Part shown: positions 28,324-57,159 of the stretch, one piece after another
Layout of the letters: each line of letters opens with the position of its first letter
How positions within the stretch are numbered: position 1 is the first letter of the stretch
Assembly: GCA_013138805.1 (NCBI GenBank)
Contig: WTCA01000015.1
Coordinates: 1 to 57,273, forward strand
DNA length: 57,273 nt
Source of the DNA: an archaeon
GTDB lineage: Archaea > EX4484-52 > GLR71
Direction: 5' to 3'
Position numbers and translations under genes: made by a program
Notes under the pieces: generated by a model
Databases searched by the model: none
Told to the model about the DNA's origin: nothing
Seen by the model: the letters and a program-made list of their open reading frames with translations, nothing else

Positions 28324-28362
28324 GATATATCATCTATTATCTGATAAAAATTGGAGAGTTGT

Positions 28363-28950: not shown

Positions 28951-28965
28951 GTCATCTCATCCTCA

Positions 28966-31336: not shown

Positions 31337-32209
31337 ATGGTGAATAGCAAGTGCAGGACAGAAGACATGTACGGCATGGTCACCGACAGGCTGATAGCTG
31401 AGATCGAGAAAGGAGGTCTCAGGTGGGTCAAGGGCTGGACTCAGACAGGTCTGCCTATGAACGGTGCCACCAAGACCAGTTACAGAGGCATCAACATGCT
31501 ATGGCTCATGATGGAGATACGGGACAAGGGCTATAAGTCTAACAGGTTCTACACCTACAGGCAGGTCAAGGGACTCAAAGGGCATGTGATCGCAGGGTCT
31601 AAGGGACTGCCTATATTCTTCTACAAGCCGATCGAGATATCTGTTGAGAACAAGGAGACGGGCAAGCAGGAGATCAAGAGGATACCTATGTTGCGCAGTT
31701 TCATCGTGTTCAACCAAGACCAGACATCGCTGAAAGGCATGGATGCTGATGCGGTGAGAGAGCCGGTGGAGATCATCAAGATCTGCGAGGACATAGCAGG
31801 ATGGTCTGACAGTCCCAGAATGATGACTGACAGCTCGGCATATTACATGTCTAGGTGGGATATCATAGGGATTCCAGACATGCAGTCGTTCCGCACTGCT
31901 GAGATGTATTACGCCACGCTGTTCCATGAGATGATCCATAGCACTGGGTCTAAGGGCAGGCTGAACCGTGACGGTATCGTCAAGACCAATGCGTTCGGCT
32001 CAGACATGTATTCAAGAGAGGAGATCATAGCCGAGCTGGGTGCCAGTATACTGTGTGCCAAGGCAGGAATATTTGAGGACAATGTCAGCAACAGCAGTGC
32101 ATATATAGACAGCTGGCTCAGGAGCCTCAAGAAAGATAAGAGATTCATATTCAAGGTGATGAGTCAGGTGCAGGCATCTGTCGACCTCATCACAGGTACA
32201 GGATCGTAG
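31337..32209 (+). CDS. ardC: ArdC-like antirestriction protein (ssDNA-binding N-domain + zincin metallopeptidase domain)
   Basis: N-terminal GGLRWVKGW...PMNGATKTSYRGINMLWL and C-terminal LFHEMIHSTGSKGRLNRD (HExxH) match the ArdC architecture. Confidence 0.8.
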   Translation: MVNSKCRTEDMYGMVTDRLIAEIEKGGLRWVKGWTQTGLPMNGATKTSYRGINMLWLMMEIRDKGYKSNRFYTYRQVKGLKGHVIAGSKGLPIFFYKPIEISVENKETGKQEIKRIPMLRSFIVFNQDQTSLKGMDADAVREPVEIIKICEDIAGWSDSPRMMTDSSAYYMSRWDIIGIPDMQSFRTAEMYYATLFHEMIHSTGSKGRLNRDGIVKTNAFGSDMYSREEIIAELGASILCAKAGIFEDNVSNSSAYIDSWLRSLKKDKRFIFKVMSQVQASVDLITGTGS

Positions 32210-38035: not shown

Positions 38036-39145
38036 ATGATGGAATTTGACTTGAGCAAGAAAGCGACTGATGAAAGGTTACATGAATTTGCTGAGAAGAT
38101 ACAGGCTCTGTCTAGACAGATAGGGTTTAAGGTCTCTGCTAGAGGTTGGGCGTACCAGCTTGAGACAGAACGACTGGTCAACAAGGATGAGTTCGACAAG
38201 GTAGAATCTTGGATCAATAGGTGTAGACGAAATGGTATATTGCCTATAGATTTCACTGCTGAGGAAGAGGGCAGAAAATTCAGCGGTGTCGAGGTTCCAG
38301 AATCTAGGTCACCAAAAAAGTATCTGAGGTCATGGATAGACCAGACCATGAGAGCTGAAAAATGGTATGTACCAGATTGGTGGACGGGTGAAAAGTATTA
38401 TATACAGATGCTGGTCGAGAAAGTAGACCTGAAGACATTATTTATGCCTATATGTGAAGAGTTCCATATCCCTATCGCAACCAGCAAAGGTTGGAGCAGT
38501 ATGTTGCAGAGATCTGAATATGCACGGAGATTCAAGGAAGCTGAGGATAAGGGTCTTAAATGTGTCCTGCTATACTGTGGCGATTTTGACCCTGACGGAC
38601 TCAGGATATCTGAGCATATCAGAAAAAATCTATCAGACCTGAAGAACGTGAGATGGGATGATAGGGTACAAGGATACAATCCTAAGAACCTGATAATAGA
38701 GCGGTTCGGTCTTGAGCATGACTTCATACAGAAACATGGACTGACATGGATAGATAACCTGATCACGGGAAGCGGTTGTGAACTGGCAAGAGTTGTAGAC
38801 GGAAAGATCGTTGCAGGTCTGAACAAGAAACATCAACCCCACAAGAATTTTGGTATGATATATCTTCAGGAGTACCTGAAAAATTATGGGGTACGGAAAT
38901 GTGAAGCTAACGCATTGATCGTGTTGCCAGACATAGCCAGAGAGCTGGTGAAAGATACCATAATCGAGTATCTCGGTACAGGCGCACTGGAAAGGTTCGA
39001 TAATAAGAAACAGAATATTGTGGACAGGTTCAATGATTTCAGGGCTAGGTCAGGTCTGCAGGAATCATTGCAGAATGCATTGGACTTGATAGATGAAGAT
39101 GAAGATGACGCTGAGGATGAGGATGAAGATACTTATGAAATGTGA
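38036..39145 (+). CDS. Top6A/Spo11-like Toprim-domain protein (orphan)
   Basis: MLVEKVDLKTLF (Toprim Glu) and LLYCGDFDPDGLRI (DxDPxG) match the Topo VI-A/Spo11 Toprim signature. Acidic tail. Confidence 0.5.
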   Translation: MMEFDLSKKATDERLHEFAEKIQALSRQIGFKVSARGWAYQLETERLVNKDEFDKVESWINRCRRNGILPIDFTAEEEGRKFSGVEVPESRSPKKYLRSWIDQTMRAEKWYVPDWWTGEKYYIQMLVEKVDLKTLFMPICEEFHIPIATSKGWSSMLQRSEYARRFKEAEDKGLKCVLLYCGDFDPDGLRISEHIRKNLSDLKNVRWDDRVQGYNPKNLIIERFGLEHDFIQKHGLTWIDNLITGSGCELARVVDGKIVAGLNKKHQPHKNFGMIYLQEYLKNYGVRKCEANALIVLPDIARELVKDTIIEYLGTGALERFDNKKQNIVDRFNDFRARSGLQESLQNALDLIDEDEDDAEDEDEDTYEM

Positions 39146-42794: not shown

Positions 42795-43124
42795 ATGGTT
42801 TCTATTGCCCGCACAGTTCCCAGACCTAGACATCACCCTAAGACAGCTCTTGACATACCATGCTATGTCATGTTGCTGGCACTCATGGCAGATAGACCTG
42901 ACCTGTGCACCAAGCTGACCGACATGTCCAAGGTGATGGATGTCACCTACTCTCATGTGCAGAGTATCAGGGACAGGCTGATACGTCTGGGCTACGTCAA
43001 CAAGCATAGAGATGGACGGAATGTAGGCATGACACTGACCGTCAGAGGCAAGGCACTGGCTGTCATCTGCAACAGGCTGGTCACTGAACTGACGATTAAA
43101 AAATATAAAGAAAAGCAAAAGTAA
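42795..43124 (+). CDS. winged helix-turn-helix (MarR-like) transcriptional regulator
   Basis: LCTKLTDMSKVMDVTYSHVQSIRDRLIRLGYVNKHRDGRNVGMTLTVRGKAL is the typical wHTH recognition helix plus wing. Confidence 0.7.
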   Translation: MVSIARTVPRPRHHPKTALDIPCYVMLLALMADRPDLCTKLTDMSKVMDVTYSHVQSIRDRLIRLGYVNKHRDGRNVGMTLTVRGKALAVICNRLVTELTIKKYKEKQK

Positions 43125-43136
43125 AGATCAAGACAG

Positions 43137-43307
43137 TCATTTCATTCTTTTCTTGCCCTTGTTCAGGTAGTACATGCCTATGCCTAGTATAGGAAGCACT
43201 ATGAGAACAAAGATACCGTCAGCGACTGTCAGGTTCTCGGTAACGCCAAGGATGATACCGGACGGTATCTCACCTATGGCTTTTGTATCTTCTACGACAG
43301 ATGACAT
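43137..43307 (-). CDS. GLTEN-module mini-protein (56 aa, hand-translated)
   Basis: MSSVVEDTKAIGEIPSGIILGVTENLTVADGIFVLIVLPILGIGMYYLNKGKKRMK. Confidence 0.7.
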   Translation of the reverse strand: MSSVVEDTKAIGEIPSGIILGVTENLTVADGIFVLIVLPILGIGMYYLNKGKKRMK

Positions 43308-43338
43308 GATAGATCACATATAAAGATTAAGATTCTAT

Positions 43339-43375
43339 AAAAAAAAAACAAAAAAGGTCGGGTCTCTGAGACCCG
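43339..43375 (-). terminator. hairpin (CGGGTCTC/GAGACCCG) followed by a long T-tract on the minus strand
   Basis: Directly downstream of the stop of 43386..43562. The minus-strand RNA reads ...CGGGUCUCAGAGACCCGACCUUUUUUGUUUUUUUUUU. Confidence 0.7.
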
Positions 43376-43385
43376 AAAGGTTCAC

Positions 43386-43562
43386 TTATTTTACAAGCTT
43401 ACCTTTCTTTGCATTTCCGTAGAAATACATACCGCCACCGATGACAGCAAGCAGGATACCGAATGTTATTGCTGTACCGATGCTGACATTCTCAGTCATA
43501 CCAAGAATTGCACCTGCTGGGATCTCTCCCAGTGCTTTAGTTCCGTTCAGAGTTTCAGACAT
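43386..43562 (-). CDS. GLTEN-module mini-protein (58 aa, hand-translated), candidate abundant membrane/structural protein
   Basis: MSETLNGTKALGEIPAGAILGMTENVSIGTAITFGILLAVIGGGMYFYGNAKKGKLVK. Has its own TATA region and a strong terminator. Confidence 0.75.
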   Translation of the reverse strand: MSETLNGTKALGEIPAGAILGMTENVSIGTAITFGILLAVIGGGMYFYGNAKKGKLVK

Positions 43563-43622
43563 AGTAGTTCACCAAATATTGCGACTGATCATGAGTCACT
43601 GTATATCAGTTGGGCACCAGAG

Positions 43623-43659
43623 TTTATAAAACAGTATCAGCACTATACTGTTTTATAAA
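43623..43659. promoter_or_regulatory. perfect 15-bp inverted repeat built from two TATA boxes (TTTATAAAACAGTAT-N7-ATACTGTTTTATAAA)
   Basis: Arms at 43623-43637 and 43645-43659. Lies between the mini-protein genes. CAGTAT recurs at 43661-43666. Confidence 0.6.
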
Positions 43660-43670
43660 GCAGTATAGTT

Positions 43671-43832
43671 CTAGCGGTTTCCAGCCCTGTCTTTCCTGCC
43701 CATCAGCAGTATCAGACCACCCACAGCCAATAGTATGATAAAGGTAGCTGTGAACAGGTCGACAGACTCTGTGACACCAGTCATGAACCCACCCACTGTG
43801 TTGCTGAAATCTAGCATGAACGTATTTTCCAT
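43671..43832 (-). CDS. GLTEN-module mini-protein, divergent variant (53 aa)
   Basis: Track ORF 43671..43865. An internal ATG gives MENTFMLDFSNTVGGFMTGVTESVDLFTATFIILLAVGGLILLMGRKDRAGNR. Confidence 0.55.
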   Translation of the reverse strand: MENTFMLDFSNTVGGFMTGVTESVDLFTATFIILLAVGGLILLMGRKDRAGNR

Positions 43833-43895
43833 CTGATACACCTCAAAGAGTAATACCCTTTTCAAAGGATGGTCATTGACCAGCCTTGACCTTTA

Positions 43896-45446
43896 TTATG
43901 ACTTTCTATTAGATGCTTCTGAAAACACGAATATACTGAAACCGATTATGATAGCTAATATACCCATATAGATAGCATCTGATATAGCTAAGTTCTCAGT
44001 CAGACCCAGTATGGCTCCTGCCGGCACCTCACCTATCGCCTTGGTCGCCGTGATGGTGGCTATGGATTCAAGGTATGCCTGATAAGACTGATATTCACTG
44101 GTTACAGCCCTCGTATCTGTGCAGTTGATGTTGCCTGCAGTGTCATTGACGCAGGCATAATATGTATATGACCCATCTGCACCGAATGTCTTGACCGTCT
44201 CAAAGCCAGTCACGGTCTCGTTGGTGCCATTCCAGTTCAGCGTGACTGTATCTATGTCAGCATCTATGACTGACAGGTTGACTGTCATCGAAGCTGTCTG
44301 GACAGTCGAGCTGTCGTCAGGCGTAGGGGCTATGAAATCTATGGTGGGCACTATCGTATCGACAGTGAAATATATGGTCTCATCCTCAACCAGACCCGCA
44401 TAGGTCACTGAATACATATATATCTTATTTATACCTTCAACAGCTGTCAATGTAGAGTTATAGATATCCCACCTGAACCCTGTATCCATATTATAATATT
44501 TATTTCCGCTGAGGAGATAATGATACCCATCAATGTCATACACTGTAGTGTCCAGATACATGCGTGATACTACACCTTCATCTATGTGCCCTGCATCACT
44601 CTGCCATGAGCCTGTTGTACTATTATACATGTATCCTACCGCTACATACGGTGCGAAACTACTGGCTGAAATGAGAAGATATTGGACATCATTGAACTTG
44701 AATGCTTCAGGCTGTGCATAATTGACCCCTGCAGGTGCCTCGGGGCTAGGTCTTATAGAATCATCAGACTGCCAAGCAGTCCCAGTCCAGTTGAAACCAA
44801 ATACATTACTGTCAGACCTATATATGAGCATGTAACTGACATCATCTATATCAAACACTACTGGATCTGCATGCCTTGTGTATGTCCCATAAGCACCATC
44901 TAACCCAGACACTATCGCACTGTCTTCCTGCCAAGAGCTACCAGTCCAGTTATATCCTATAAGATCATTGGTCTCATTGCCTTTTATGAAGTACCATATA
45001 TCTGATATATTGAATACAGTCTGACCTGATGGAACTGTGTTAGATTCATAAGTATAATATGTACCTAGACCAGTCACTATAGCAGTATCAGACAGCCAAG
45101 CTGTCCCAGTCCAGTTATATCCATGAAAACTGCCACCATATCCTTGAATAAGATACTGTGTACTGTCTTTATACAGACCTGTATAACTAGATATATACTG
45201 ACCTGTCACACCTGCCCTCTTAGACTCATCAGCCAGCCACTTGATAGCATAAGTATATTCATTATCGTTAAGCCTATATTTGACATCATCATAGCCTATT
45301 GATGAACTTAGAGATAGAGGTATTGATACAGTACTATAAGATATGTTCTGAGGGCTGTCTATCGTCAATGCAGGCACTGCATACGCAGGCATGGACAGCA
45401 ATAAGATTGCTGTCATAAGAGCAGATAGGACAATGCTATATCTCAT
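43896..45446 (-). CDS. secreted repeat protein (GYNWTG-x-WQSD repeats) with GLTEN anchor, adhesin/receptor-binding-like
   Basis: Signal peptide ends ...SMPAYAVP. About 6 repeats of the F/GYNWTGTAWQSD..I..GL type. C-terminus KAIGEVPAGAILGLTENLAISDA-TM-NRKS. Confidence 0.8.
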   Translation of the reverse strand: MRYSIVLSALMTAILLLSMPAYAVPALTIDSPQNISYSTVSIPLSLSSSIGYDDVKYRLNDNEYTYAIKWLADESKRAGVTGQYISSYTGLYKDSTQYLIQGYGGSFHGYNWTGTAWLSDTAIVTGLGTYYTYESNTVPSGQTVFNISDIWYFIKGNETNDLIGYNWTGSSWQEDSAIVSGLDGAYGTYTRHADPVVFDIDDVSYMLIYRSDSNVFGFNWTGTAWQSDDSIRPSPEAPAGVNYAQPEAFKFNDVQYLLISASSFAPYVAVGYMYNSTTGSWQSDAGHIDEGVVSRMYLDTTVYDIDGYHYLLSGNKYYNMDTGFRWDIYNSTLTAVEGINKIYMYSVTYAGLVEDETIYFTVDTIVPTIDFIAPTPDDSSTVQTASMTVNLSVIDADIDTVTLNWNGTNETVTGFETVKTFGADGSYTYYACVNDTAGNINCTDTRAVTSEYQSYQAYLESIATITATKAIGEVPAGAILGLTENLAISDAIYMGILAIIIGFSIFVFSEASNRKS

Positions 45447-45477
45447 GGTATCTCACTGACTGTATATTTGACACGGC

Positions 45478-45495
45478 TGTTTATAAGGTAGCATC
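45478..45495 (-). promoter_or_regulatory. recurrent promoter motif (minus strand GATGCTACCTTATAAACA)
   Basis: 32 nt upstream of the ATG at 45446. Overlaps the stop codon of 45494..46987. Confidence 0.6.
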
Positions 45496-46987
45496 AGCGT
45501 CTCTTAGACCATGCGGTGTACCCGAATATCCCGAACCCTATGATGGTCAGGATTATGACCGCATTGATGCCGTCTGCCACAGACACGTTCTCAGTCAGAC
45601 CAAGGATCGCTCCGGCAGGCAGTTCACCCAATGCTTTGGTAGAGTCTATGGTGCTCTGCACCTCAGCTTCAGGTATGGTGTCCACAGTGAATGAGACAGA
45701 TGAGTAGCCCATGTCATCTGATGTGTTGGTAGCATAGACGACAATGTCATTGGCACCTTCCTGTGCAGTGATGGTCTTGTTGAGGAATGCCTTGTCCGCT
45801 TCAAGCCATGCCATGCGCAGGTATGTATCAGTATCATCCCAATAGCTGAAATAGATATTGTCATCTGAATCAGTCACAGATGCCAGACCCAAGCCAGTAG
45901 CAGAATCACTGTCCACTGTATTGATAGTCCATGATGCACCATCCCATACAGCCACACTCAGGTTACCTGTCGTCTCAGCCGTAAATCCTATGTATATATT
46001 GTTGTCAGAATCCATGGTCATAGATGAATGATCACCAGATATAGGAGTCACAGTCTCTATGTTCCATGTACCGTTCCACTTAGCGAACTTAAGGTCTGCA
46101 TTGGTGACATCATGGTAACTTATGTAGATATCGCCTTCAGGATGAACTGCAGTAGATGTGATCTCACCTACACTGCCTGTGCTGTCGACAGTCTCAGTGT
46201 TCCATGTACCGTTCCACTTAGCGAACTTGAGGTCAAGGTTGGTAACATCATAGTAGCTTATGTATACCTCGCTGTTATCAGGGCTGGTTGCGATTGACGT
46301 ATATATCCCTACACTGCCTGCGCTGTCCACAGTCTCTATGTTCCAGCTACCGTTCCACTTGGCATATTTAAGGGCAGTATTAGGGGTGTCTCTGTAACTT
46401 ATATGTATGGTGTCATCAGAGTCTATCTCCATAGCAGGATAGTCACCTACATTGCTTGTGCTGTCCACAGTCTCTATGTTCCAGCTACCGTTCCATTTAG
46501 CCAGATTAAGAGTTCCTGCAGTCCCGTCAGTGTAAGCGATATATATGTAATCGTTAGAATCAGTTGCTACTGCACTGAACAGACCGACGTCACCGTCACT
46601 GTCAACAGTCTCCAATGTCCAACTGCCGTTCCATCTAGCTATCTTGAGGTCTCCACCTACACTGTCATAATAGCCTATAAAGACATTACCTTCAGAATCT
46701 GTCGCAATCCCTGTAAATTCCTGCACTTCAGATACATTGTCACCAGTCATGGTAACCCATGTATCTCCTGCTCCTGAATATGTGAACAGGCTGATGTTAT
46801 CTGCATCATTCAATGAATAGTATGCATCACTCAGTGTCTCGTCAGCTGACCAGTTAAGGTCGATTGTCGCATTGTCATAGGTGGTCGCAGTCGGGCTGTC
46901 TATGGTGACAGTCGGGACTGCATATGCAGACATGGACAGTAACATGAATGTTACGAGGATGACAGGCAATATATTACTGTATTTCAT
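45494..46987 (-). CDS. secreted beta-propeller-like repeat protein with GLTEN anchor
   Basis: About 7-8 repeats of ~44 aa (L-K-F/Y-A-K-W-N-G-S/T-W-N-I/T-E-T-V-D-S...Y-I-S-Y). The N- and C-terminal ~60-90 aa are near-identical to 47035..48324. Confidence 0.8.
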   Translation of the reverse strand: MKYSNILPVILVTFMLLSMSAYAVPTVTIDSPTATTYDNATIDLNWSADETLSDAYYSLNDADNISLFTYSGAGDTWVTMTGDNVSEVQEFTGIATDSEGNVFIGYYDSVGGDLKIARWNGSWTLETVDSDGDVGLFSAVATDSNDYIYIAYTDGTAGTLNLAKWNGSWNIETVDSTSNVGDYPAMEIDSDDTIHISYRDTPNTALKYAKWNGSWNIETVDSAGSVGIYTSIATSPDNSEVYISYYDVTNLDLKFAKWNGTWNTETVDSTGSVGEITSTAVHPEGDIYISYHDVTNADLKFAKWNGTWNIETVTPISGDHSSMTMDSDNNIYIGFTAETTGNLSVAVWDGASWTINTVDSDSATGLGLASVTDSDDNIYFSYWDDTDTYLRMAWLEADKAFLNKTITAQEGANDIVVYATNTSDDMGYSSVSFTVDTIPEAEVQSTIDSTKALGELPAGAILGLTENVSVADGINAVIILTIIGFGIFGYTAWSKRR

Positions 46988-47018
46988 AAGGACTCACTGT
47001 ATATATATTTGACATGAG

Positions 47019-47036
47019 TATTTATAAGATAGCATC
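47019..47036 (-). promoter_or_regulatory. recurrent promoter motif (minus strand GATGCTATCTTATAAATA)
   Basis: 32 nt upstream of the ATG at 46987. Overlaps the stop of 47035..48324. Confidence 0.6.
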
Positions 47037-48324
47037 AGCCTCTCTTAGACCATACCGTGAACATGAACATCCCGAAACCTAAGATAACAGCCAGTATGCC
47101 TATACGGATCCCGTCTGCCACAGACACGTTCTCAGTCAGACCAAGGATCGCTCCGGCAGGCAGTTCACCCAATGCCTTGGCAGAGTCTATGTTGCTCTGC
47201 ACCCCAGTATCAAGGATGGCGTCCACAGTGAATGAGACAGATGAGTAGCCCATGTCATCTGATGTGTTGGTAGCATAGATGACCACTGTATTCTGTCCTT
47301 CAATACCAGTTATTGTTGTATTGATAAAATTATAATCAAGAGATTGTGTAATATTATATCCTTTAAATGTTCCTGTATAATCCAATGATAAAAAATACAT
47401 CGTATCATTCAGTTCATAGATAACTGGTGATGTGTATATATTTGCTGTTGCAAGACCTCCAATAATAGCCGTATCGCTCTGCCAAGATGTACCTGTCCAA
47501 TTATATCCATAAAAATTGCCACTAGATTCACCTGATATAAGATACCAGTACCCATTCATCTCAAATACATTGGGTGTTGAAATTTGACCAATATCACTAA
47601 GTCCATTTACGATAGCAGTATCGCTTTGCCATGTATTGCCTGTCCAATTATAACCATTGAAAGTACCAGCTTGGTTACCTTGAATTGCATACCATACATT
47701 ATCTTTCTCAAATACAGTTATTGCACTGTTAGTTGAACTGGATATCCCACTTATCACAGAAGAATTGGTCTGCCATATAGTCCCATTCCATGTAAAGCCA
47801 TATCTTGTTGCACCGTCACCAGTACCCATTATCATGTGCAACTGACTGTCCCAATAAAAAGTTTCTGGAACAGCCGAACTTCTACCACCGATTAAACTAT
47901 AAAGACCGTTATCTATGCTACCATTAAGTTGCCATACAGCCCCATCCCATGTAAGTGCATCTTTAGTGGAATCCAGACCACCGTATAAAAAACCCCCAAG
48001 AATAAGATGCCATTGACTGCCATAATAAAATACCGTTCCAGATTGTTGTGCATTTGCGACCATGCTACTGAGGATATAATCATCGCTTGTCCAATTACCT
48101 GTATATATTAAATTTCCTTCAGCTAAACTGACATTGCTGGCATCATTCAATGAATAGTATGCATCACCTAAGGTCTCGTCAGCTGACCAGTTAAGGTCGA
48201 TTGTCGCATTGTCATATGTGGTCGCAGTCGGGCTGTCTATGGTGACAGTCGGGACTGCATATGCAGACATGGACATTAACATGAATGTTGCGAAGATGAC
48301 AGGCAATATATTACTGTATTTCAT
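47035..48324 (-). CDS. secreted repeat protein (YNWTG-x-WQSD repeats) with GLTEN anchor
   Basis: Same ends as 45494..46987, but the core is of the 43896..45446 repeat type. Confidence 0.8.
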   Translation of the reverse strand: MKYSNILPVIFATFMLMSMSAYAVPTVTIDSPTATTYDNATIDLNWSADETLGDAYYSLNDASNVSLAEGNLIYTGNWTSDDYILSSMVANAQQSGTVFYYGSQWHLILGGFLYGGLDSTKDALTWDGAVWQLNGSIDNGLYSLIGGRSSAVPETFYWDSQLHMIMGTGDGATRYGFTWNGTIWQTNSSVISGISSSTNSAITVFEKDNVWYAIQGNQAGTFNGYNWTGNTWQSDTAIVNGLSDIGQISTPNVFEMNGYWYLISGESSGNFYGYNWTGTSWQSDTAIIGGLATANIYTSPVIYELNDTMYFLSLDYTGTFKGYNITQSLDYNFINTTITGIEGQNTVVIYATNTSDDMGYSSVSFTVDAILDTGVQSNIDSAKALGELPAGAILGLTENVSVADGIRIGILAVILGFGMFMFTVWSKRG

Positions 48325-48356
48325 AAAAATCCCTGTACGATATATTTATTGTCTAT

Positions 48357-48374
48357 CATTTATAAGGTAGCATC
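48357..48374 (-). promoter_or_regulatory. recurrent promoter motif (minus strand GATGCTACCTTATAAATG)
   Basis: About 33 nt upstream of the ATG at 48324. Immediately downstream of the stop of the 48377 gene. Confidence 0.6.
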
Positions 48375-48376
48375 AA

Positions 48377-50863
48377 TCACTTAAACACCAGCAGGAATCC
48401 ACCTATGACCAGTCCCATGACCACTATGGCGACCGCAAGGTTAGTGTTCTCGACAATGCCTGTCACCAGACCGCCTGCTTTGGCAGTGGCATCATATCCC
48501 TTGCTGTGCGTCAGTATGGTCTCAGGGATGAATATGGTCAGGTTACGTGCATTGCTGACTGTACCTGTACCGAACTCGTCCCTGCACTGTCCCACAGCGC
48601 TCCAGACATCACCGTACCCAGTGCTACCCGATGGTATGGTGACCAGATTAACTGACGTGTCAGGCAACATGAATCCTGACCCAGACAGGGATCCCACCAC
48701 TGCACCGTTCCTTGTCACGTTCCATACAGCAGTCAGCAATGCACCCGCATCTGCGTCAGTGCAGTGCATGTGCAGGTATATGTTATTGTATGTGTATGCC
48801 GTATCATTGTCGAACGGGTCGAACGCTATGTCTGTCATCGCAAACGCAATGATCTCGGCAGGACTGTTGATTATATATGTATAGTCAGATATGTCGACAG
48901 GACTGATGTCTGTACCGTCACCGCAGGTCGTATACGCCCTGACAAACTGACTGCCACTGAATGTATGTTCAGGCACTGTCTTGACCAGTGTGGACTCGCT
49001 GTCATTGACTGTCATGCTACCCGACAGGTCAGGCAATAACGATATGCCTGCATAGATGTCCCAGTAAGCTGTCAATGTCTCCCCAGAATCTGAGTCTGAG
49101 CATGTCACGGTCAGGTTCAGAGTCTCATTGTTATACATGCTGTCAGGGTACAGGTCATTCTCAGATACCACAGGCACTGCATTGACGACAGTGAAATCAT
49201 ATAGTGCACTGGATGACTGGTGCCCTGCAGTATCATTGACGTAGTACCTGTAATAGACGATGTCGCCCTTGGCATATCCCGTATGGCTCATGACATGCCA
49301 GTATTCGTCCACTGAATATGTCAAGATCGTGTAATTGGTCGTCTGGTTGTACTCGAACAGGACAGTGTCTATGTCAGTCTCTATGACGGTCACGTTGAAC
49401 ATAGTATCTTGGTCAGTGGTGGGTGTGGCATTGATGGTCACTGCAGACAAGACTGGATATGTATTGTCTATCCTCATGGTACTGCTTAATATATCTGATG
49501 ATACTGCGATGCCGTCGGTCACGTTGGCAAGGACATAATAGTCAGCGTCTGGCACAGTATTCGTATCCCATTCATAGTAGCAGGTACCGTAGCTGGCGTT
49601 CAGCTCAAACACGGACAGGATCGTCCTGTTCGGGCTGAGGTCATCGTTCAGAAGATAGTAACTGCAATTTACCCAGTCCTGATTAGGGTCTGACACAGTC
49701 GTGTTGATCCATATGATGCCTGTCTCGGATATGCCCGTACCTGAGTATATGGTAGGAAACCCACCCCTGACACTGTCGGTATGCAACGTGAGTGCAGGTG
49801 GCAGGTTATCCAGCTGTCCTATCAGGTCATATATGACTTCGCCGGCATTATTATATACAGTGTCATTGACCTTGACCCTGAACTCACCCTGAAACCCGTT
49901 AAAGAATGTCAGGTGATGATTGCCACAGGATCCGGTCACGTCATTCCAAGTGACACCGTAATCTGCAGATAACTGATACTTGTCAGGGCATGAGATACCA
50001 TCGGTAGCCCAGACATCCCAGCTCTGTTCAAGGTTATTGGCATTGAAGCTGGTACCGATAGCATACATGGTATCTGTCACCTCGATGCCGTTGAAGGTGC
50101 CATTCTCGTCAGTGACGAAATTGAGGTTGTAATATGTCCCTTCATCATACAGGTCACCCACGCTGACTGCATCAGCAGGTGTGCAGACATCACTCAGCCT
50201 TACGTCTCCTGTGACATATGACTTATTGCATCCGTACACCACAAAGTCTATGGCTGTGGACACTGAGTTCTCGTCCGCCTGAAACCTGAACACGTAACTT
50301 GTATTGGCTGACACGGTCACGTTATTGATCTGCACCTTGACTATGTTACCCTGATACGCATTGATGGATGTGTCCTTGGATACGTTATCGGGATGAAAAT
50401 TGAATGTGGTCGGCATCCATTCATGAGCACCGGTCAGGTTAAGGCTGACCCGCACTGTCGTATTGTCAGGATTGCCCGCCACGAAACCGCAGTCCTTGTT
50501 GAGCCACCCGTCACTGTCCAGTGCAGGGTTCAGTGACCCGTTGATGAAAGACCAGTTGGCTTGGTATGAGTCTATGATGTCATATGCACGGTATGATACA
50601 CTGCATGACGACAGGTCTAGGTTAGGATCTGACAGGTTCCATCTAGCGTACAGCCCGCCCGTGACCGTCTCGTTCAGGTCGATGGGTGAATAGTAATGAT
50701 CTGTAAGGGCATAGTCAGATATGACAGGTGCAGTATTGTCCACCTCTATGCTGTAATATTCAGTCTGAGTATTGAGACCTCCTATGACTATGGCAGAGGC
50801 TGATGAAGACAATGACAGTAATACTATCAGGCTGACTGCTAAATATATAGTCATCTTATCCAT
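48377..50863 (-). CDS. large secreted surface protein with divergent GLTEN-like anchor
   Basis: Track ORF 48377..50872 (GTG). ATG at 50863. Signal peptide ends ...SSSASA. C-terminus KAGGLVTGIVENTNLAVAIVVMGLVIGGFLLVFK. Confidence 0.75.
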   Translation of the reverse strand: MDKMTIYLAVSLIVLLSLSSSASAIVIGGLNTQTEYYSIEVDNTAPVISDYALTDHYYSPIDLNETVTGGLYARWNLSDPNLDLSSCSVSYRAYDIIDSYQANWSFINGSLNPALDSDGWLNKDCGFVAGNPDNTTVRVSLNLTGAHEWMPTTFNFHPDNVSKDTSINAYQGNIVKVQINNVTVSANTSYVFRFQADENSVSTAIDFVVYGCNKSYVTGDVRLSDVCTPADAVSVGDLYDEGTYYNLNFVTDENGTFNGIEVTDTMYAIGTSFNANNLEQSWDVWATDGISCPDKYQLSADYGVTWNDVTGSCGNHHLTFFNGFQGEFRVKVNDTVYNNAGEVIYDLIGQLDNLPPALTLHTDSVRGGFPTIYSGTGISETGIIWINTTVSDPNQDWVNCSYYLLNDDLSPNRTILSVFELNASYGTCYYEWDTNTVPDADYYVLANVTDGIAVSSDILSSTMRIDNTYPVLSAVTINATPTTDQDTMFNVTVIETDIDTVLFEYNQTTNYTILTYSVDEYWHVMSHTGYAKGDIVYYRYYVNDTAGHQSSSALYDFTVVNAVPVVSENDLYPDSMYNNETLNLTVTCSDSDSGETLTAYWDIYAGISLLPDLSGSMTVNDSESTLVKTVPEHTFSGSQFVRAYTTCGDGTDISPVDISDYTYIINSPAEIIAFAMTDIAFDPFDNDTAYTYNNIYLHMHCTDADAGALLTAVWNVTRNGAVVGSLSGSGFMLPDTSVNLVTIPSGSTGYGDVWSAVGQCRDEFGTGTVSNARNLTIFIPETILTHSKGYDATAKAGGLVTGIVENTNLAVAIVVMGLVIGGFLLVFK

Positions 50864-50868
50864 GTATA

Positions 50869-52989
50869 TCACTCAAGCTTGCATCTTTCTCCTACAGCCA
50901 CGTCACAGTATGCTGTGCTGGTATATATGACATGATACTGTACAGTCTCAATATATGTTATCGGGAACCCTGTACCCAATAGGTCTTCAAAGTCTATGTA
51001 CCAGTCACGCCATATGAAATGACCAGTACCAGTATCTCTCACAGTCATCAATGATTTCGGTATAGCAAAACCGAACAGGACATCTGTGGCAGGTCTGTCA
51101 AATTCCATATTGAAAACATACTCACCGTTACCTGTATCATATATGCCTGCAGTCACATTGAAATTGGTCACCTGTGCAGGTGTCAGGACATGATATTCAC
51201 CGCCTGAATAATACCCAAAATAGATCTTCTTGCACACTGCACCCTTGCAGAAATTGATGCCGTCTATCTGGATATCATAGGTCAGACCACACAGGTCACC
51301 GTAAGTATGATCATCCGTCGCAGACAGCTCAACCGTGTAATCACCGTCATCCCAACCACTCGTATCTATGACATGCCCGAAACTGAATATGGTGGTGTTC
51401 CAGTCATCGGTGTAATTGCTGTGCTTGACCGCATCGTACTGGTCAGTCACGTTGAGGAGTATACGGTACAGGTTAGCGTCATTGACTGATGCGTCCCATG
51501 TCACGCTGTCCGCCACGACTGTGCTGTTGTCATAGGCTGGATATGAACCCAGTGTCCAGTCTGGATATACGGTATCGATGGTGACATTGTAATATGCAGA
51601 CCATGAACCGTAACCGTTACCTAGAGTATCATTGGCTCTGACATGCCAGTGATACAGACCGTCACCCAGCTCGTCCACGGCTGTCAGTGCATTGTACAGG
51701 TCATAGATGCTATCTATGTCAGTGGTTATGTTGCCCGCCTCAAAACCGGTGCTGTTGGATACCTGCAACTGATATGCGTCCACACTGGTCTGGTCATATG
51801 GCTGTGTCCAAGTAAAGTTAGTCTGGTTGACATTGGTATGGTCAGTGTCATAGGGCAACAGGTTGACCGGCATTGCCGGTGGCAATGTATCCACGCTGAA
51901 ATGTACAGTGGCAGATATGTTCTGGTTGTCAGCCGTGTCATTGCACATGAAATATACCTGATGACTGCCCTGTGTCATGGTAGAGTTCTCACCGTAATAA
52001 TCGTCACCGTACCCAGCGTAAGGCAGGTGTATGTAGCCAACACTGTCAAGGTCATACCAGCAGGTGTCCAAGTTGATGTCTATGGCGGTCACGTTAAAGG
52101 CGATTGTGGTTGACGGGTATGTCGTGTTGAACGGTGAATTGACGGTCAGTACAGGATATATTGTATCTACTGTCAGCGTATATGCACCTGACCAGCTACC
52201 AAAACCGTTACCCTCAGTATCATTGGCACGGACTCGCCAATGATAGATGCTGTCGTCTAACGATTCAGGAGCAGTCACTGTATAATCACTGTCTGATATG
52301 TCATCCCTGTCAAGGGTCAGGTTACCAGCCTCAAACCCTGTGCTGTTAGATACCTGCAACTGATACACGTCAATGCCTGTCCTGTCATACGGTTCAGTCC
52401 AGTCAAGATATGGCGTGTCAGTATTGATGAGAGACCCGTTATCTGGCGATACCAATACGGGCGCTTCAGGAGGTGCAATGTCTGGAGGGCGTGTGACATC
52501 AAGATATATATGGTCATAACTCACACTGACACCTATCATGTATGCCTGAACTTCCAAGCCGTTCAGCTCTGAGCCAGTATCGACACTGCAGTTGCCTGTC
52601 AGGTTGCAGGAGTACAGTCCAGTAAAGCCCACTGCAGTCATACAAGACCCGCACTGGCTATGTGACCCAGTCACATTCGTATATATATATGTGTAAGCAT
52701 TCGGGTGCGTAAAATCAATCTCGACGTATATCATGACTGATGGCAATACCTCTCCTGCTTCGACGGTACCGTTCCAACCATGGACTGTTATGTTCTCACT
52801 GTCAGCAAGAGAGTACAGGACACCATCTGACTGGTTGACTCTAGATGTCACATCAGTTGCACCACCGTCATAGGCTGTCGCATCGGTAGGTATCCATGTC
52901 TCAGATACTGCCATGACAGGGTAGGATAGTGACAGGATAGCTAAGGCTACTATGACATAGACCCATCGTGATCTTGATACCCTGTACAT
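50869..52989 (-). CDS. large secreted protein with duplicated ~100-aa Ig/FN3-like modules
   Basis: Track ORF to 52992 (TTG). The ATG at 52989 is preceded by GAGGTGA. The YQLQVSNSTGFEAGN...YHWRVRANDTEGNGFGSWS module occurs twice. No TM anchor. Confidence 0.75.
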   Translation of the reverse strand: MYRVSRSRWVYVIVALAILSLSYPVMAVSETWIPTDATAYDGGATDVTSRVNQSDGVLYSLADSENITVHGWNGTVEAGEVLPSVMIYVEIDFTHPNAYTYIYTNVTGSHSQCGSCMTAVGFTGLYSCNLTGNCSVDTGSELNGLEVQAYMIGVSVSYDHIYLDVTRPPDIAPPEAPVLVSPDNGSLINTDTPYLDWTEPYDRTGIDVYQLQVSNSTGFEAGNLTLDRDDISDSDYTVTAPESLDDSIYHWRVRANDTEGNGFGSWSGAYTLTVDTIYPVLTVNSPFNTTYPSTTIAFNVTAIDINLDTCWYDLDSVGYIHLPYAGYGDDYYGENSTMTQGSHQVYFMCNDTADNQNISATVHFSVDTLPPAMPVNLLPYDTDHTNVNQTNFTWTQPYDQTSVDAYQLQVSNSTGFEAGNITTDIDSIYDLYNALTAVDELGDGLYHWHVRANDTLGNGYGSWSAYYNVTIDTVYPDWTLGSYPAYDNSTVVADSVTWDASVNDANLYRILLNVTDQYDAVKHSNYTDDWNTTIFSFGHVIDTSGWDDGDYTVELSATDDHTYGDLCGLTYDIQIDGINFCKGAVCKKIYFGYYSGGEYHVLTPAQVTNFNVTAGIYDTGNGEYVFNMEFDRPATDVLFGFAIPKSLMTVRDTGTGHFIWRDWYIDFEDLLGTGFPITYIETVQYHVIYTSTAYCDVAVGERCKLE

Positions 52990-53019
52990 CAACTTTCACC
53001 TCTTTCGTCCTTTCAATCG

Positions 53020-53424
53020 TCAGCCTTCATCTCTCCGAAGATACCTGTCTGGCGGTCTGTCCTGTTGCCTGTCTTCATACACAGGTTCCGGTTCCGGTTC
53101 AGCCACTTCATCATCACCGTCAGACATCCGTTTAAGTCTCTCTATCAGGTTTTGGTCTATCCAGTCCACACCTTGCATTACTATAGGATATATGTTCAAT
53201 ATAGCTTTAATGCCCCTGTAATATACCCAGAAGAATAGGTATATCATCCCCAGTGCGACTGCTATGACAGTTATCAATATGATCCAGTACGCCAGTGACG
53301 TGACAAAGAAAGACACTGCCTGCGTAGATGTCTGGATGAATGTTGACAGTGAATCAAAAGATGTACTGACCGCCTTGAAGCTCAGGTCACTCACTGTCAC
53401 ATTGTCAATAGCCATATTTGACAC
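53020..53424 (-). CDS. membrane protein
   Basis: 134 aa with 2 TM helices and a PEPEP tail. Confidence 0.6.
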   Translation of the reverse strand: MSNMAIDNVTVSDLSFKAVSTSFDSLSTFIQTSTQAVSFFVTSLAYWIILITVIAVALGMIYLFFWVYYRGIKAILNIYPIVMQGVDWIDQNLIERLKRMSDGDDEVAEPEPEPVYEDRQQDRPPDRYLRRDEG

Positions 53425-53430
53425 CCCTCG

Positions 53431-54249
53431 TCATCTCTGTGTCATCCTCTTGGACAGGAACCTGACGCCTATCAGGATAGATAACAGCAGTGCAGGGAAC
53501 AGGATGTACTTGACCAGTATGAGCAGTATGGTTATGGTCACATAATATACCAGTGCCACTATGTTGATCAGGTACTGGCTTATCTTCTGGATGATGACCA
53601 GCCAGCTGTTGACCGTCTTCTTCTGGCAGACTAGGACGCTCTCTGACGCATCAAACACTGAGTAGTCATATATAGAATCCTTGACTGTGTATATGACTTC
53701 AAGGGTGACATCATAGTGGGGGACGAACAGGCAGAAATCTGAGCTGATACCATTTGCGTCAGGCAACGGTAACTGATAAGCCATGTAATAACTGCCCGTG
53801 CTGGCATATGTAGATCCCTGAGATATGTCTATCACATATTTCGCAGACATACCGCACCTGATATATACAGGATTGTACACAGACGTGTTATAGGTACCTG
53901 TACTGTCCGTGAACTTGAACAGCACCAGCCTGTTCTTGCCGGTCACGTCCATGACTATGAACTGATATGGCGGTGCGGATATCAGTGTATCATTGGCGAT
54001 CTCATTGGCACCAAAGTCATATACTGTGTCACCCGTACCACTGAATACCATGGCAAGGTCAAACAGCCAGTCATACTCGTCATATGTCCGTGCTATGCTG
54101 TCCAGCGAGTCGTCGTCTATGTACTCAGCAGACTCATTGAACGGCGTGGCATAGACTGATGTGGCTGAGGCTGACAATGACAGCAGTATGATGAACAGCA
54201 ATGCTGTGACAGTATATGATCTTTTTGTTACATCTTTAAATGTTATCAT
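53431..54249 (-). CDS. membrane protein (signal anchor + C-terminal TM pair)
   Basis: 272 aa. ATGA overlap with the upstream gene. Confidence 0.65.
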   Translation of the reverse strand: MITFKDVTKRSYTVTALLFIILLSLSASATSVYATPFNESAEYIDDDSLDSIARTYDEYDWLFDLAMVFSGTGDTVYDFGANEIANDTLISAPPYQFIVMDVTGKNRLVLFKFTDSTGTYNTSVYNPVYIRCGMSAKYVIDISQGSTYASTGSYYMAYQLPLPDANGISSDFCLFVPHYDVTLEVIYTVKDSIYDYSVFDASESVLVCQKKTVNSWLVIIQKISQYLINIVALVYYVTITILLILVKYILFPALLLSILIGVRFLSKRMTQR

Positions 54250-54959
54250 ACCAATACCCCCTGCAACGTAGTCCAGCCCTCGATTAGCACCTTGATGACG
54301 ACAGCCAGTATGATCGCCTTGCCTAGACCCTGACCAGTACCTACCATGACACCTATCACGGCAAGGAGCAGGAATATCTGAAGCGCTGACTTATACTCGT
54401 TGTAATAATACCTGAACGGATTGACCGTCGCCTCATCAATGCTGAAGTCATATGAATATATGCCCTTGTCAAGCACGTCCAGCTCACCCACGACAATCTG
54501 CTGTGTCAATGAGCTGATGTCAGGTGTCTGGTTATATGCCACCCACCTATAACTGCCTTTGATCAGGTATGTGTCATAGGTACCGAAAGATGATATGTTG
54601 ACGCAGGACTGACCATCCCTGTATATGTTGTGGTACGCTTCCTGCGGTGTGTATTCCTTGGTGAAGTTAAGTGACAGTAGCTTACCTATGCTCTTGCCCC
54701 AGTCATACCCGTCATCATATGCATCCACGTCAGGAGCTACTCTCTTGATGAACACGATGTCCATGAAATCGTTGTAATAAGGTCTGTCTCTCAGCTCGGA
54801 CATGTTGACAGATGACGCATTGACGACGTAGCCGTATACGCAGATCTCAGTGTAGTTGGCGTCTGTGACACCTGTCGACACTGCTGACACTGTGCATGGC
54901 ATCATAATGGTCAGTGCCAGTATCATAAGACCTATGACTATCAGATTATACCTTGACAT
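54246..54959 (-). CDS. secreted/membrane protein
   Basis: 237 aa. Signal peptide ends ...CTVSAVS. C-terminal TM helices. Confidence 0.65.
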   Translation of the reverse strand: MSRYNLIVIGLMILALTIMMPCTVSAVSTGVTDANYTEICVYGYVVNASSVNMSELRDRPYYNDFMDIVFIKRVAPDVDAYDDGYDWGKSIGKLLSLNFTKEYTPQEAYHNIYRDGQSCVNISSFGTYDTYLIKGSYRWVAYNQTPDISSLTQQIVVGELDVLDKGIYSYDFSIDEATVNPFRYYYNEYKSALQIFLLLAVIGVMVGTGQGLGKAIILAVVIKVLIEGWTTLQGVLV

Positions 54960-54960
54960 A

Positions 54961-57143: not shown

Positions 57144-57159
57144 TATATAAGATAACATC
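57144..57159 (-). promoter_or_regulatory. recurrent promoter motif variant (minus strand GATGTTATCTTATATA)
   Basis: About 27 nt upstream of the ATG at 57117, so the mRNA is probably near-leaderless. Heads the six-gene minus-strand operon. Confidence 0.55.

Follow-up and report, generated by a model that had tools for sequence, protein, structure and literature searches.

Three neighbouring genes of a mobile element, gA, gB and gC, begin and end alike and differ in their centres. How did such genes come about, and what do their products do? We studied them in a window of 57,273 nt, the whole stretch of DNA analysed. It belongs to an unclassified mobile element whose probable source is an archaeon of a deep-sea methane seep. 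The promoter type, the richness in glycosylation sequons and the metagenome bins, in which mis-binning is possible, make an archaeal host probable. The minus strand carries gA, gB and gC, a point that the original prediction had not stated, as well as all features below unless noted. The gC ORF (47035..48324, 429 aa) encodes a signal peptide, a split Ig-like domain into which a ~5-bladed propeller of the YNWTG type is inserted, a linker and a class-1 anchor. The gB ORF (45494..46987, 497 aa) has the frame of gC around a 7-bladed KWNGSW propeller, and gA (43896..45446, 516 aa) combines a diverged frame and a YNWTG propeller with an extra Ig-like domain and a class-1 anchor. Two Ig-rich glycoproteins of the same module, gD (831 aa) and gE (707 aa), are encoded upstream at 48377..52992.

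Shared ends and a split Ig-like domain

The ends of gB and gC proved to be as similar as had been predicted for the first ~65 and last ~90 residues. In the N-terminal block 61 of the first 67 residues are identical (91% aa, 91.5% nt), and the last 96 residues share 72% aa and 81% nt identity, with YATNTSDDMGYSSVSFTVD and KALGELPAGAILGLTENVSVADGI running through the C-terminal block without a mismatch. The ends of gA are more diverged (~66-71% nt; 39% aa in the N-terminal Ig half and 54-56% aa in the anchor) and enclose the second core type, again as proposed. The 5' block conserved between gB and gC comprises a signal peptide and an N-terminal Ig half (gC, aa 1-23 and aa 24-67, 48124..48324; gB, aa 1-67, 46787..46987), and a C-terminal Ig half follows the core (gC, aa 335-369, 47218..47322; gB, aa 403-437, 45677..45781). 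The predicted signal peptides of all three proteins end in AYA, and their ectodomains are rich in N-glycosylation sequons and lead through a short linker into the C-terminal anchor.

The two blocks flanking the core in gB and gC are the two parts of a single Ig-like domain, one loop of which holds the propeller. Joined together, the halves can be aligned over their full length with Ig domains of this element family that have no insertion (BLASTP E 8e-7, with a gap at the junction), and comparison with an uninterrupted domain, the one in gE serving as reference, returned a probability of 98.6% (hhalign, E 1e-15, 82 columns). The AF2 model of gC (mean pLDDT 82.8) has N-side strands at residues 27-59 and C-side strands at 320-367, both at pLDDT ~90, and a helix at 402-426. 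In the gB model pLDDT falls below 50 in the Ig halves because the alignment is shallow there. The constant ends had been assigned to secretion and anchoring; both signals are present, but AF2, BLASTP and hhalign identify the ends mostly as the halves of an Ig-like domain split by the propeller. The additional Ig-like domain of gA (~90 aa), absent from the original prediction, is uninterrupted; in the alignment it occupies, with a linker, aa 365-465 (44052..44354), and aa 381-449 give weak Pfam matches to PKD_4 and Big_13.

Two types of propeller core

The gB core (aa 68-402, 45782..46786) is predicted to fold into seven four-stranded blades. Six W-[ND]-G-x(1,2)-W blade signatures recur in it at ~46 aa, which fits the 138-nt period reported by TRF, and the AF2 propeller comprises 28 strands (residues 77-395, pLDDT ~97). 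YNWTG-type blades make up the cores of gA (aa 65-329, 44460..45254) and gC (aa 68-334, 47323..48123), the latter with about five blades and four W-x-G-x-x-W signatures at a period of ~50 aa. The claim that the central regions of gB and gC are unrelated stood: no nucleotide similarity between the two cores was found by blastn, profile-profile comparison of their repeat types gave a probability of 0.3% (hhalign), and the blade numbers differ (7 versus ~5). Homology between the KWNGSW and YNWTG repeats is thus not detectable. Structure prediction returned confident globular propellers, the fold that had been expected, and not non-globular cores.

By Foldseek the gB core resembles the Photorhabdus PLL/PHL lectins (PDB 5c9l, 5mxf, 6rfz, 8q82; TM 0.72-0.76, rmsd 3.1-3.6 A over about 330-346 residues), which share its seven four-stranded blades and its Trp/Gly-rich blade signatures. 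Identity to them is only 12-14%, without a sequence-family match, and they are soluble lectins, whereas the gB propeller is a domain of a membrane-anchored protein and its sugar binding is putative. The gC core matches the RSL, AAL and PLL lectins and 5-bladed GH43/GH130 enzymes. Fold similarity of the models at 12-16% identity makes the propellers putative sugar-binding domains. The propeller of gA and gC, with about five blades, belongs to a rare, archaea-dominated YNWTG family. Two tailed archaeal viruses or proviruses have members of this family in their tail modules, and the Ig frame also accompanies the YNWTG type in proteins that do not belong to the element family. The gB propeller family has at least 962 members, is widespread in cells and consists mostly of cellular surface proteins with T9SS, PKD or PGF partner domains. 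Of the 120 proteins most closely related to the gB propeller, gB alone has the Ig frame.

Promoter motif

The motif GATGCTAYCTTATAAA occurs exactly at 45480-45495, 47021-47036 and 48359-48374. As a BRE/TATA-type promoter it reads GATGCTACCTTATAAA ahead of gC (48359..48374) and of gA (45480..45495, overlapping the gB stop codon) and GATGCTATCTTATAAA ahead of gB (47021..47036, overlapping the gC stop codon). Each copy ends 33-34 nt ahead of its ATG and lies on or directly after the upstream stop codon. Each of the three genes therefore has its exact copy, as first described, but the motif is not private to them: with up to two mismatches it matches nine times in the window, where chance would give 0.09, the six other copies (1-2 mismatches each) standing ahead of other ORFs on both strands. 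It is an element-wide consensus promoter of the archaeal BRE/TATA type.

An anchor specific to the element family

The class-1 anchors of gC (aa 380-429, 47038..47187), gB (aa 448-497, 45497..45646) and gA (aa 466-516, 43899..44051) consist of a conserved GE(L/I/V)PAGAILGLTEN segment (K-x-x-G-E-L-P-A-G-A-I-L-G-L-T-E-N in gC), one transmembrane helix and a basic tail. Among 1.84 billion representative proteins, searched exhaustively with HMMER, only 13 have this anchor; those traced to a contig were all on contigs of this element family and none was found outside it. The anchor did not match PGF-CTERM or another known sorting family.

Downstream of gA lie three small anchor-bearing genes that were absent from the original prediction. 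The small membrane protein p53 (43671..43832) is similar in sequence to the class-2 anchor at the C terminus of gD, while p58 (43386..43562, 58 aa, 91-98% conserved between elements) and p56 (43137..43307, 56 aa) are stand-alone copies of the class-1 anchor, with 40-54% identity to the anchors of gA, gB and gC and the same layout of polar N terminus, hydrophobic helix and basic C-terminal tail. TATA-like boxes precede p58, and directly after it a hairpin with a T-run (43358..43376) is the only terminator-like intergenic site on the minus strand within 43000-48500. On the plus strand, P0156 (17258..17530, 90 aa) has a signal peptide followed by a class-1 anchor without an ectodomain.

The wider minus-strand module contains 25.6 sequons per 1000 aa versus 2.9 per 1000 aa in plus-strand genes, and most of its large proteins begin with a signal-peptide-like stretch and have a transmembrane segment at the C terminus. 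Its 13.5-kb block of secreted and membrane proteins is syntenic throughout the element family.

Spikes, host adhesins or decoys

On balance, we regard gA, gB and gC as probable lectin spikes, displayed on a membrane that the element makes or modifies, with swappable cassettes setting the attachment range. The membrane would most likely be the envelope of a virus-like or vesicle-like particle, in which the anchor may co-assemble with p58 and p56, for example through GxxxG-type motifs. The propellers would bind glycans on the target-cell surface, and three parallel specificities would set or widen the attachment range. The YNWTG propellers in viral tail modules and the paralogy of the anchor to small element-specific membrane proteins are indirect support for virus-like attachment. 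A role as virion receptor-binding proteins is plausible but, with no capsid or packaging gene recognised, unproven. No relatives of the element backbone turned up among GenBank phages and PLSDB plasmids or in IMG/VR and JGI metagenomes, and particle formation is therefore something that we purely infer; nor was sequence similarity to the element found among deposited archaeal viruses and phages.

The proteins may instead be host-cell-surface adhesins, extra lectins with which a plasmid-like extrachromosomal element decorates its archaeal host, and they could then act in cell-cell contact, consortium or biofilm formation, or transfer of DNA or vesicles, with no virion. No capsid, portal, terminase, packaging or other virion hallmark was recognised among the ~30 larger proteins scanned, the element encodes an ArdC-like anti-restriction protein of a family typical of plasmids, and the type-I membrane topology is equally compatible with the cytoplasmic membrane. 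The mostly cellular company of the gB propeller also suits adhesins, whereas the YNWTG propellers of viral tail modules do not. We nevertheless judge this role rather unlikely, as the anchor is confined to the element family, occurs in none of the cellular proteomes searched and is paralogous to three small element proteins, of which p58 is highly conserved and framed by TATA-like boxes and a terminator-like hairpin, and the conserved synteny of the 13.5-kb block is that of a structural module.

Superinfection exclusion, in which lectins on the infected cell mask or bind receptors as decoys and block competing elements, would suit a copy of the consensus promoter for each gene and the differing copy numbers among relatives, a common trait of accessory or conflict genes. 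It is improbable, since no similarity to known exclusion or defence proteins was found in the libraries searched and it leaves unexplained why the anchor matches conserved, structural-looking small proteins.

Exchange of cores between constant ends

Compared in successive 30-nt windows that start shortly before the ATG, gB and gC have nucleotide identities of 100, 90, 100, 97, 100 and 87%, then 43 and 17%; counted from the 3' end, the values are 80, 63, 77, 100, 93, 83, 93, 100, 57 and 53%, then 17%. Both borders are sharp because these identities drop abruptly, falling away within 30 nt at each border, which disposes of gradual divergence along the genes. The homology of the ends includes synonymous sites and extends into the promoter.

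In related elements the same site holds 0, 1 or 3 propeller cassettes, in a different order, so the comparison that had been suggested revealed variation in both number and arrangement. The gC core is nearest to L001-520 (42%) and L002-426 (39%), whereas the gC Ig halves are nearest to gB (93%, 77%) and the gB orthologue L001-496 (86%, 74%); the ends of gC are thus closer to an orthologue of the other core type than to orthologues of its own. By segment identities, anchors group by genome and not by core type. Segment by segment, the identities form a mosaic. Together with the sharp borders and the variable cassettes, this pattern supports the original proposal of modular core exchange between constant ends. 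The repeated junction of C-side block, promoter and N-side block (~0.5 kb) would be a substrate for homologous recombination, which would make the ends alike and lead to gain, loss or rearrangement of cassettes. That the genes are ordinary tandem paralogues, with ends kept by purifying selection and cores merely diverged, draws on their single overall architecture and on the W-x-G-x(1,2)-W signature in both propeller types, yet it is very improbable and already contradicted by the disparity of the cores in blade number and profile, the restriction of the Ig frame to gB among its best propeller relatives, the conservation of synonymous sites and promoter, the affinity of the gC ends and the grouping of the anchors.

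Comparison with known systems

Enveloped archaeal pleomorphic viruses have pairs of a spike and a small membrane protein, VP4 and VP3 in pleolipoviruses. Here, too, a signal-peptide spike with a C-terminal transmembrane anchor adjoins small membrane proteins in a compact block, but the element has 57 kb against roughly 7-17 kb, and its spike anchor and small proteins are paralogues. In filamentous phage, the adsorption protein pIII ends in a membrane-inserted, coat-like module that it has in common with pVIII, the small major coat protein, much as gA, gB and gC carry the p58/p56 module at their C termini. This analogy is functional only, with no homology found and with a 57-kb element that has archaeal-type promoters. 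The plasmid pR1SE of Halorubrum lacusprofundi, which is transmitted in vesicles, is likewise ~50 kb long, has its membrane and secreted proteins in a block and lacks recognisable capsid genes; for the element described here, vesicles are conjectural.

Receptor-binding proteins of tailed phages are mosaic tail fibres or spikes in which a conserved virion-attachment end is combined with exchangeable distal binding domains. Like them, gA, gB and gC join a conserved attachment module to interchangeable binding modules, have recombination borders at domain junctions, encode several specificities side by side and occupy a site whose gene content differs among close relatives. Unlike them, they attach through a transmembrane anchor, are constant at both ends and hold the binding domain within an Ig-like domain and not at a terminus, and their element has no recognised tail or tailed-virus hallmark genes. 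With one scaffold and anchor and two unrelated binding domains, the locus looks like a swappable attachment, or host-range, kit.

Shared ends and exchanged cores of the tandem genes

The three adhesin-like genes lie in tandem on the minus strand and encode proteins of 429 aa (gC, 47035..48324), 497 aa (gB, 45494..46987), and 516 aa (gA, 43896..45446). The original prediction described gB and gC as having near-identical ends around unrelated cores, and the alignments bear this out. At the N terminus, 61 of the first 67 residues are identical (91% at the amino acid level, 91.5% at the nucleotide level), and 7 of the 13 codons that differ in this stretch are synonymous. The C-terminal 96 residues share 72% amino acid and 81% nucleotide identity and include two fully identical runs. 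The blastn similarity is confined to the two ends, covering 237 nt on the 5′ side (90% identity, starting upstream of the ATG) and 292 nt on the 3′ side (83%); the stretch that separates these end blocks gave no match. Identity drops from 87-100% to 17-43% inside one 30-nt window at the 5′ and 3′ borders alike, so both recombination borders mapped by nucleotide alignment are sharp, not graded. As predicted, gA carries the same core type as gC (the YNWTG type, where gB has the KWNG type) and more diverged ends than gB and gC; it also has an additional Ig-like domain that had not been mentioned.

Both cores were modeled with AlphaFold2 from family alignments, and the expected β-propellers were predicted with high confidence as closed, globular assemblies of four-stranded blades. 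In the gB model, 28 β-strands (residues 77-395) form seven four-stranded blades with a pLDDT of ~97, and Foldseek places this core closest to the seven-bladed Photorhabdus PLL/PHL lectins (E ~1e-16, TM 0.72-0.76, rmsd 3.1-3.6 Å). The gC model has an overall pLDDT of 82.8, with ~5 blades predicted at residues 68-314 (pLDDT 86-98). Its similarity to RSL, AAL/AFL, and PLL lectins and to five-bladed GH43/GH130 enzymes is modest (E 1e-8 to 1e-6, TM ≤0.57), and its search against the viral structure library BFVD yielded no more than generic propellers with low TM scores. Sequence homology of the cores to the PLL/PHL or AAL/RSL lectin families was undetected, with 12-16% identity in the structural alignments, and no Pfam lectin family matched either core. 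A blade signature, W-x-G-x(1,2)-W, the one feature observed that bears on possible carbohydrate binding at inter-blade sites, is common to both repeat types and raised the idea that the two propellers are homologous; hhalign returned a probability of 0.3%, and ‘unrelated cores’ is therefore fair wording.

The two core types also differ in distribution. The gB core is a member of a cellular KWNG-type propeller family of at least 962 proteins at E≤1e-3 (best non-self matches 1e-178 to 1e-69), found in bacteria and archaea, usually as part of cell-surface proteins that also carry T9SS, PKD, or PGF domains. Relatives are annotated as PF23911 or PF15892/BNR_4, neither of which matched gB itself in a direct Pfam scan. 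The YNWTG repeat family is small, comprising 26 protein clusters, and its repeats were found in 16 of 185,579 species genomes, most of them seep and vent bins of Methanosarcinales and DPANN, and in 2 IMG/VR contigs. Two YNWTG propellers belong to viral tail modules. One, a stand-alone protein of 264 aa, is encoded in a myovirus-like prophage with the tail tube gene on one side and the tape-measure gene on the other (positions 10001-10795 of L004, a 1.79-Mb contig). The other lies inside a 1915-aa ORF (positions 6291-12038 of L025, a 72-kb IMG/VR contig), and its contig also encodes minor-tail-like and portal-like proteins.

A propeller inserted into a predicted Ig-like domain

The constant ends had been assigned to secretion and anchoring. 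A signal peptide, which ends in AYA immediately before VPT, and an anchor are indeed present; this description is incomplete, however, as the ends also contain the two halves of an Ig-like domain. In the gC model, the block on the N-terminal side of the core (aa 24-67) forms three strands with a pLDDT of ~90, and the block on the C-terminal side (aa 335-369) falls within the last four predicted strands (aa 320-367), again at ~90. When joined in silico, the two halves are colinear by BLASTP with an uninterrupted Ig domain (aa 280-370) of gE, one of two Ig-rich glycoproteins encoded upstream in the same module (E 8e-7), and the gap in this alignment falls exactly at the artificial junction. A profile of eight such joined pairs of halves aligned by hhalign with a profile of six intact Ig domains from the same element family, including those of gE and gA, end to end over 82 columns (probability 98.6%, E 1e-15). 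The propeller insertion points coincide with the gB/gC identity borders. Together, the joined-half alignments and the gC strand model indicate that the ectodomain is a single Ig-like domain with a propeller predicted to be inserted in one loop.

As a caveat to the split-Ig reading, the Ig halves are poorly predicted in the gB model because the alignment is shallow there. In addition, no Pfam family matched the Ig-like domain above its gathering threshold. The best was Glucodextran_B, which scored 14.5-19 bits (cutoff 27) and aligned end to end in three of five constructs; matches to Big_7 and Big_13 were below cutoff too.

A promoter motif at each cassette

An exact GATGCTAYCTTATAAA lies 33-34 nt upstream of the ATG of each of gA, gB, and gC, placed, as originally described, on or adjoining the previous stop codon. 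The further suggestion that each gene has its own promoter copy stands insofar as the motif precedes each gene; the motif is not private to them, as nine copies of the 16-mer with ≤2 mismatches occur in the window against 0.09 expected. The motif precedes ORFs on either strand, and a copy at 57144-57159 stands before the first gene of the minus-strand block. The consensus is (C/G)ATGCTAYCTTATAWA, with copies at 8383, 9997, 12842, 24997, and 26764 (plus strand) and 57159 (minus strand). Some ~10-15 nt downstream of several copies comes another conserved A/T-rich element (CATATAT or CAAATATA), and the start codon follows the TATA box of the element-wide copies by ~16-35 nt, which looks like a BRE/TATA plus initiator arrangement. 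On related contigs, the 15-base motif ATGCTAYCTTATAWA precedes the 520-aa and 496-aa genes of L001 and the 282-aa gene of L002. Each cassette thus carries the element’s standard BRE/TATA-type promoter motif, suggesting that the cassettes may be transcribed independently.

Mosaic evolution among related elements

Comparison with related elements showed that the membrane-protein block is syntenic and that the cassette zone, from the gD-like to the p53-like gene, varies in the number and order of cassettes. In the window the zone holds gC, gB, and gA, in the order YNWTG, KWNG, and YNWTG plus Ig. The 56.8-kb contig L001 encodes, in this order, proteins of 797 aa (YNWTG type), 520 aa (YNWTG type, also with an extra Ig domain), and 496 aa (KWNG type). 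The 97-kb contig L002 has a LamG protein and one YNWTG cassette, and the 71-kb contig L005 has no genes in this zone.

Segment identities are mosaic. The cores pair by type between genomes (gB with L001-496, 43%; gC with L001-520, 42%; gC with L002-426, 39%; gA with L001-797, 39%). The Ig halves do not track the core: those of gC are 93% and 77% identical to those of gB and 86% and 74% identical to those of the KWNG-type L001-496, and only 68-70% and 51-63% identical to those of orthologues of the gC core. The anchors cluster by genome, at 81-93% among the three of L001 and 74% between gB and gC, compared with 49-59% between genomes. The split-Ig frame is present in YNWTG proteins beyond the element family (P0002, P0007, and P0012), and among the best 120 of at least 962 relatives of the gB propeller it occurs only in gB. 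The sharp borders, the mosaic identities, and the variable cassette zone support the proposed modular exchange, in which mosaic evolution would have swapped a binding module between conserved attachment modules.

In the simplest history, the propeller-in-Ig module would be ancestral for the YNWTG type, and a cellular seven-bladed propeller would have been captured into the same Ig loop prior to the divergence of the window and L001 lineages. In each genome, the promoter, the signal peptide, the Ig halves, and the anchor may afterwards have been homogenized by gene conversion or recombination. An obvious substrate for this recombination would be the ~0.5-kb junction that recurs between cassettes and is made up of the C-side block, the promoter, and the N-side block.

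The neighboring glycoprotein genes also differ between relatives. In the window (48377-52992, minus strand), gE (707 aa) and gD (831 aa) are separate genes with a 4-nt overlap, and a signal peptide is encoded in gD as well, whereas their counterparts in L002 (1817-6391) form a single ORF of 1524 aa, which indicates gene fission or fusion between relatives.

An element-restricted anchor and its stand-alone copies

The anchor occupies the last ~50 residues of gA, gB, and gC and consists of K-x-x-G-E-(L/I/V)-P-A-G-A-I-L-G-L-T-E-N, ~10 further residues, a transmembrane helix, and a basic tail. Directly downstream of gA are three small membrane-protein genes on the minus strand that were missed in the earlier reading. 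The first, p53 (43671..43832), resembles the C-terminal anchor of gD. The other two, p58 (43386..43562) and p56 (43137..43307), are stand-alone anchor copies with 40-54% identity to the anchors of gA, gB, and gC. A fourth gene, P0156 (17258..17530, plus strand), lies far from the lectin genes, surrounded by plus-strand genes, and its 90-aa product is only a signal peptide and an anchor (GEIPAGFILGLTEN plus transmembrane helix). Between elements p58 is 91-98% conserved; its gene is preceded by TATA-like boxes and followed by a hairpin and T-run, the only terminator-like site on the minus strand between genes of the region. PHROGs and Pfam scans with p58, p56, p53, and P0156 gave only noise (E≥0.1).

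An exhaustive HMMER search of 1.84 billion representatives with the anchor profile found 13 proteins, and all of those traced to a contig lie on contigs of this element family; no relatives were found in IMG/VR. In the related elements the anchor is also fused to a LamG/DUF2341 ectodomain (1183 aa), to tandem Ig domains (281/282 aa and 321 aa), and to a 217-aa protein without domain assignment. An archaeosortase-type sorting signal (PGF-CTERM or relatives, exosortase-type) was considered for the anchor, and NCBIfam and Pfam scans for such a signal were without match. A sorting signal of the host should turn up on many of its proteins; the restriction of the anchor to this element family and its occurrence as small conserved proteins would instead suggest assembly with an element-encoded partner. 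We regard p53, p58, and p56 as candidate major envelope or coat proteins.

Nature of the element

The window spans the entire 57,273-bp contig, in which no direct or inverted terminal repeats, tRNA genes, or Rfam families were found. Up to ~43 kb most of the larger ORFs are read from the plus strand, and from 57.1 to 43.1 kb most are read from the minus strand; the plus-strand region is interrupted by a short minus-strand block at ~27.4-29.5 kb (27397-29544). Adjoining this short block, the intergenic stretch 27067-27211 holds a tandem array of 6.3 copies of the 23-nt AATCAAGGTAAATCTCCATAGGA (91% matches), possibly an iteron-like origin or an array with a regulatory role.

Within the main minus-strand block, the 718-, 237-, and 272-aa proteins, gD, and gA to gC have a signal-peptide-like N terminus and C-terminal transmembrane segments, gE has a signal peptide only, and a 134-aa protein has one internal transmembrane segment. 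N-glycosylation sequons (N-x-S/T) occur at 25.6 per 1000 aa in this block (43137-57117) compared with 2.9 per 1000 in 23 plus-strand proteins, a ~9-fold difference that would fit an exported, glycosylated protein set. The C-terminal ~150 aa of the 718-aa protein, encoded by the first gene of the block (54961-57117, minus strand), contain two Cys-rich modules (C..W...WS.C, CTENWYTGAWSLCSLG... and CTQWSDCVNSQKTQTC...) just before the C-terminal transmembrane helix that are reminiscent of thrombospondin-type repeats.

The plus strand has few recognizable genes: an ArdC-like protein, a Cellulophaga-phage-like protein, and weak NTPase and HTH matches. The ArdC-like anti-restriction protein (31337-32209) comprises ArdC-N and a zincin metallopeptidase domain (Pfam E ~1e-32), a family typical of conjugative plasmids and some phages. 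The second is a 369-aa protein (38036-39145) that matches phrog_6247 (‘DNA topoisomerase’, E 2e-69) and shares 51% identity with hypothetical proteins of Cellulophaga phages, which makes the gene common to bacterial phages and an apparently archaeal element. Searches of PDB sequences with the 369-aa and 718-aa proteins gave no match. Three features, namely the promoter motif, the abundance of sequons, and the bins to which relatives were assigned, suggest that the host is archaeal, probably a member of the Methanosarcinales. Contigs related to the window originate from Site F, a cold seep in the South China Sea; backbone protein and profile queries found no relatives among GenBank phages, PLSDB plasmids, IMG/VR, or JGI metagenomes, and the lectins had no match in GenBank phages or PLSDB plasmids.

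The original prediction likened the three genes to the host-range cassettes of viral receptor-binding proteins. The mosaic exchange and sharp borders favor this comparison, the minus-strand membrane-protein module has a structural look and is syntenic across the element family, and the YNWTG propeller also occurs in tail modules of other viruses; on the other side, no capsid or packaging gene was recognized among the scanned window proteins. A viral receptor-binding cassette is therefore the best functional hypothesis and only partly supported, as the element may be a virus, a vesicle-forming plasmid, or something else. Borg and mini-Borg elements, defined by inverted terminal repeats, a GC content of 32-36%, pervasive perfect tandem repeats, and two unequal single-strand replichores (10.1101/2023.08.02.551345), resemble the window only in its convergent two-block gene layout and in a cumulative GC skew that turns near 42 kb; the window has neither inverted nor direct terminal repeats, its GC content is ~44%, and its tandem repeats are imperfect. 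Many such in-frame repeats, with units of 6-30 nt and recalling those elements, lie inside plus-strand genes (2544-2814, 3206-3257, 7725-7772, 34418-34510, 35073-35146, 35417-35474, and 39091-39130). A conjugative pilus or T4SS, an idea prompted by the superficially pilin-like p58 and P0156 and by the ArdC-like gene, was set aside as no VirB4-like or coupling ATPase was recognized among the scanned large proteins. A tailed virus was rejected with no terminase, portal, capsid, or tail match in ~30 window proteins.

Implications

Exchangeable adhesin or receptor-binding modules on a mobile element are an already-known kind of system. What is new here is the predicted insertion of a propeller into an Ig-like domain, with two unrelated propellers at one site; an apparently element-restricted anchor that is also encoded as short proteins without an ectodomain, of which two are stand-alone; and the undescribed element family itself. 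The locus is also a natural case of protein design, in which one Ig-like scaffold would accept two unrelated propellers in the same loop and recombination borders coincide with domain junctions.

Beyond the receptor-binding hypothesis, we put forward only tentatively, as a doubtful possibility, that cold-seep Methanosarcinales harbor an undescribed family of membrane-containing viruses or virus-like vesicle elements and that the window is a near-complete genome of this family. In this view, p58 and p56 would be the major coat or envelope proteins and the spikes lectin domains fused to that coat module. Any ectodomain that acquired the module would then be displayed, here a five-bladed propeller, a seven-bladed propeller, LamG, and Ig arrays. 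If so, this would be a plug-in spike system without a described counterpart among archaeal viruses, and a coat-derived anchor would show how a new kind of particle gains and swaps its host-range determinants, with a possible new virion organization. To our knowledge, hardly any viruses or other mobile elements have been described for marine methane-cycling archaea, and we know of nothing on their attachment to cells. The locus supplies concrete candidate attachment proteins in the form of two predicted lectin-like propellers, and p58 is a candidate particle protein that may be used as a marker.
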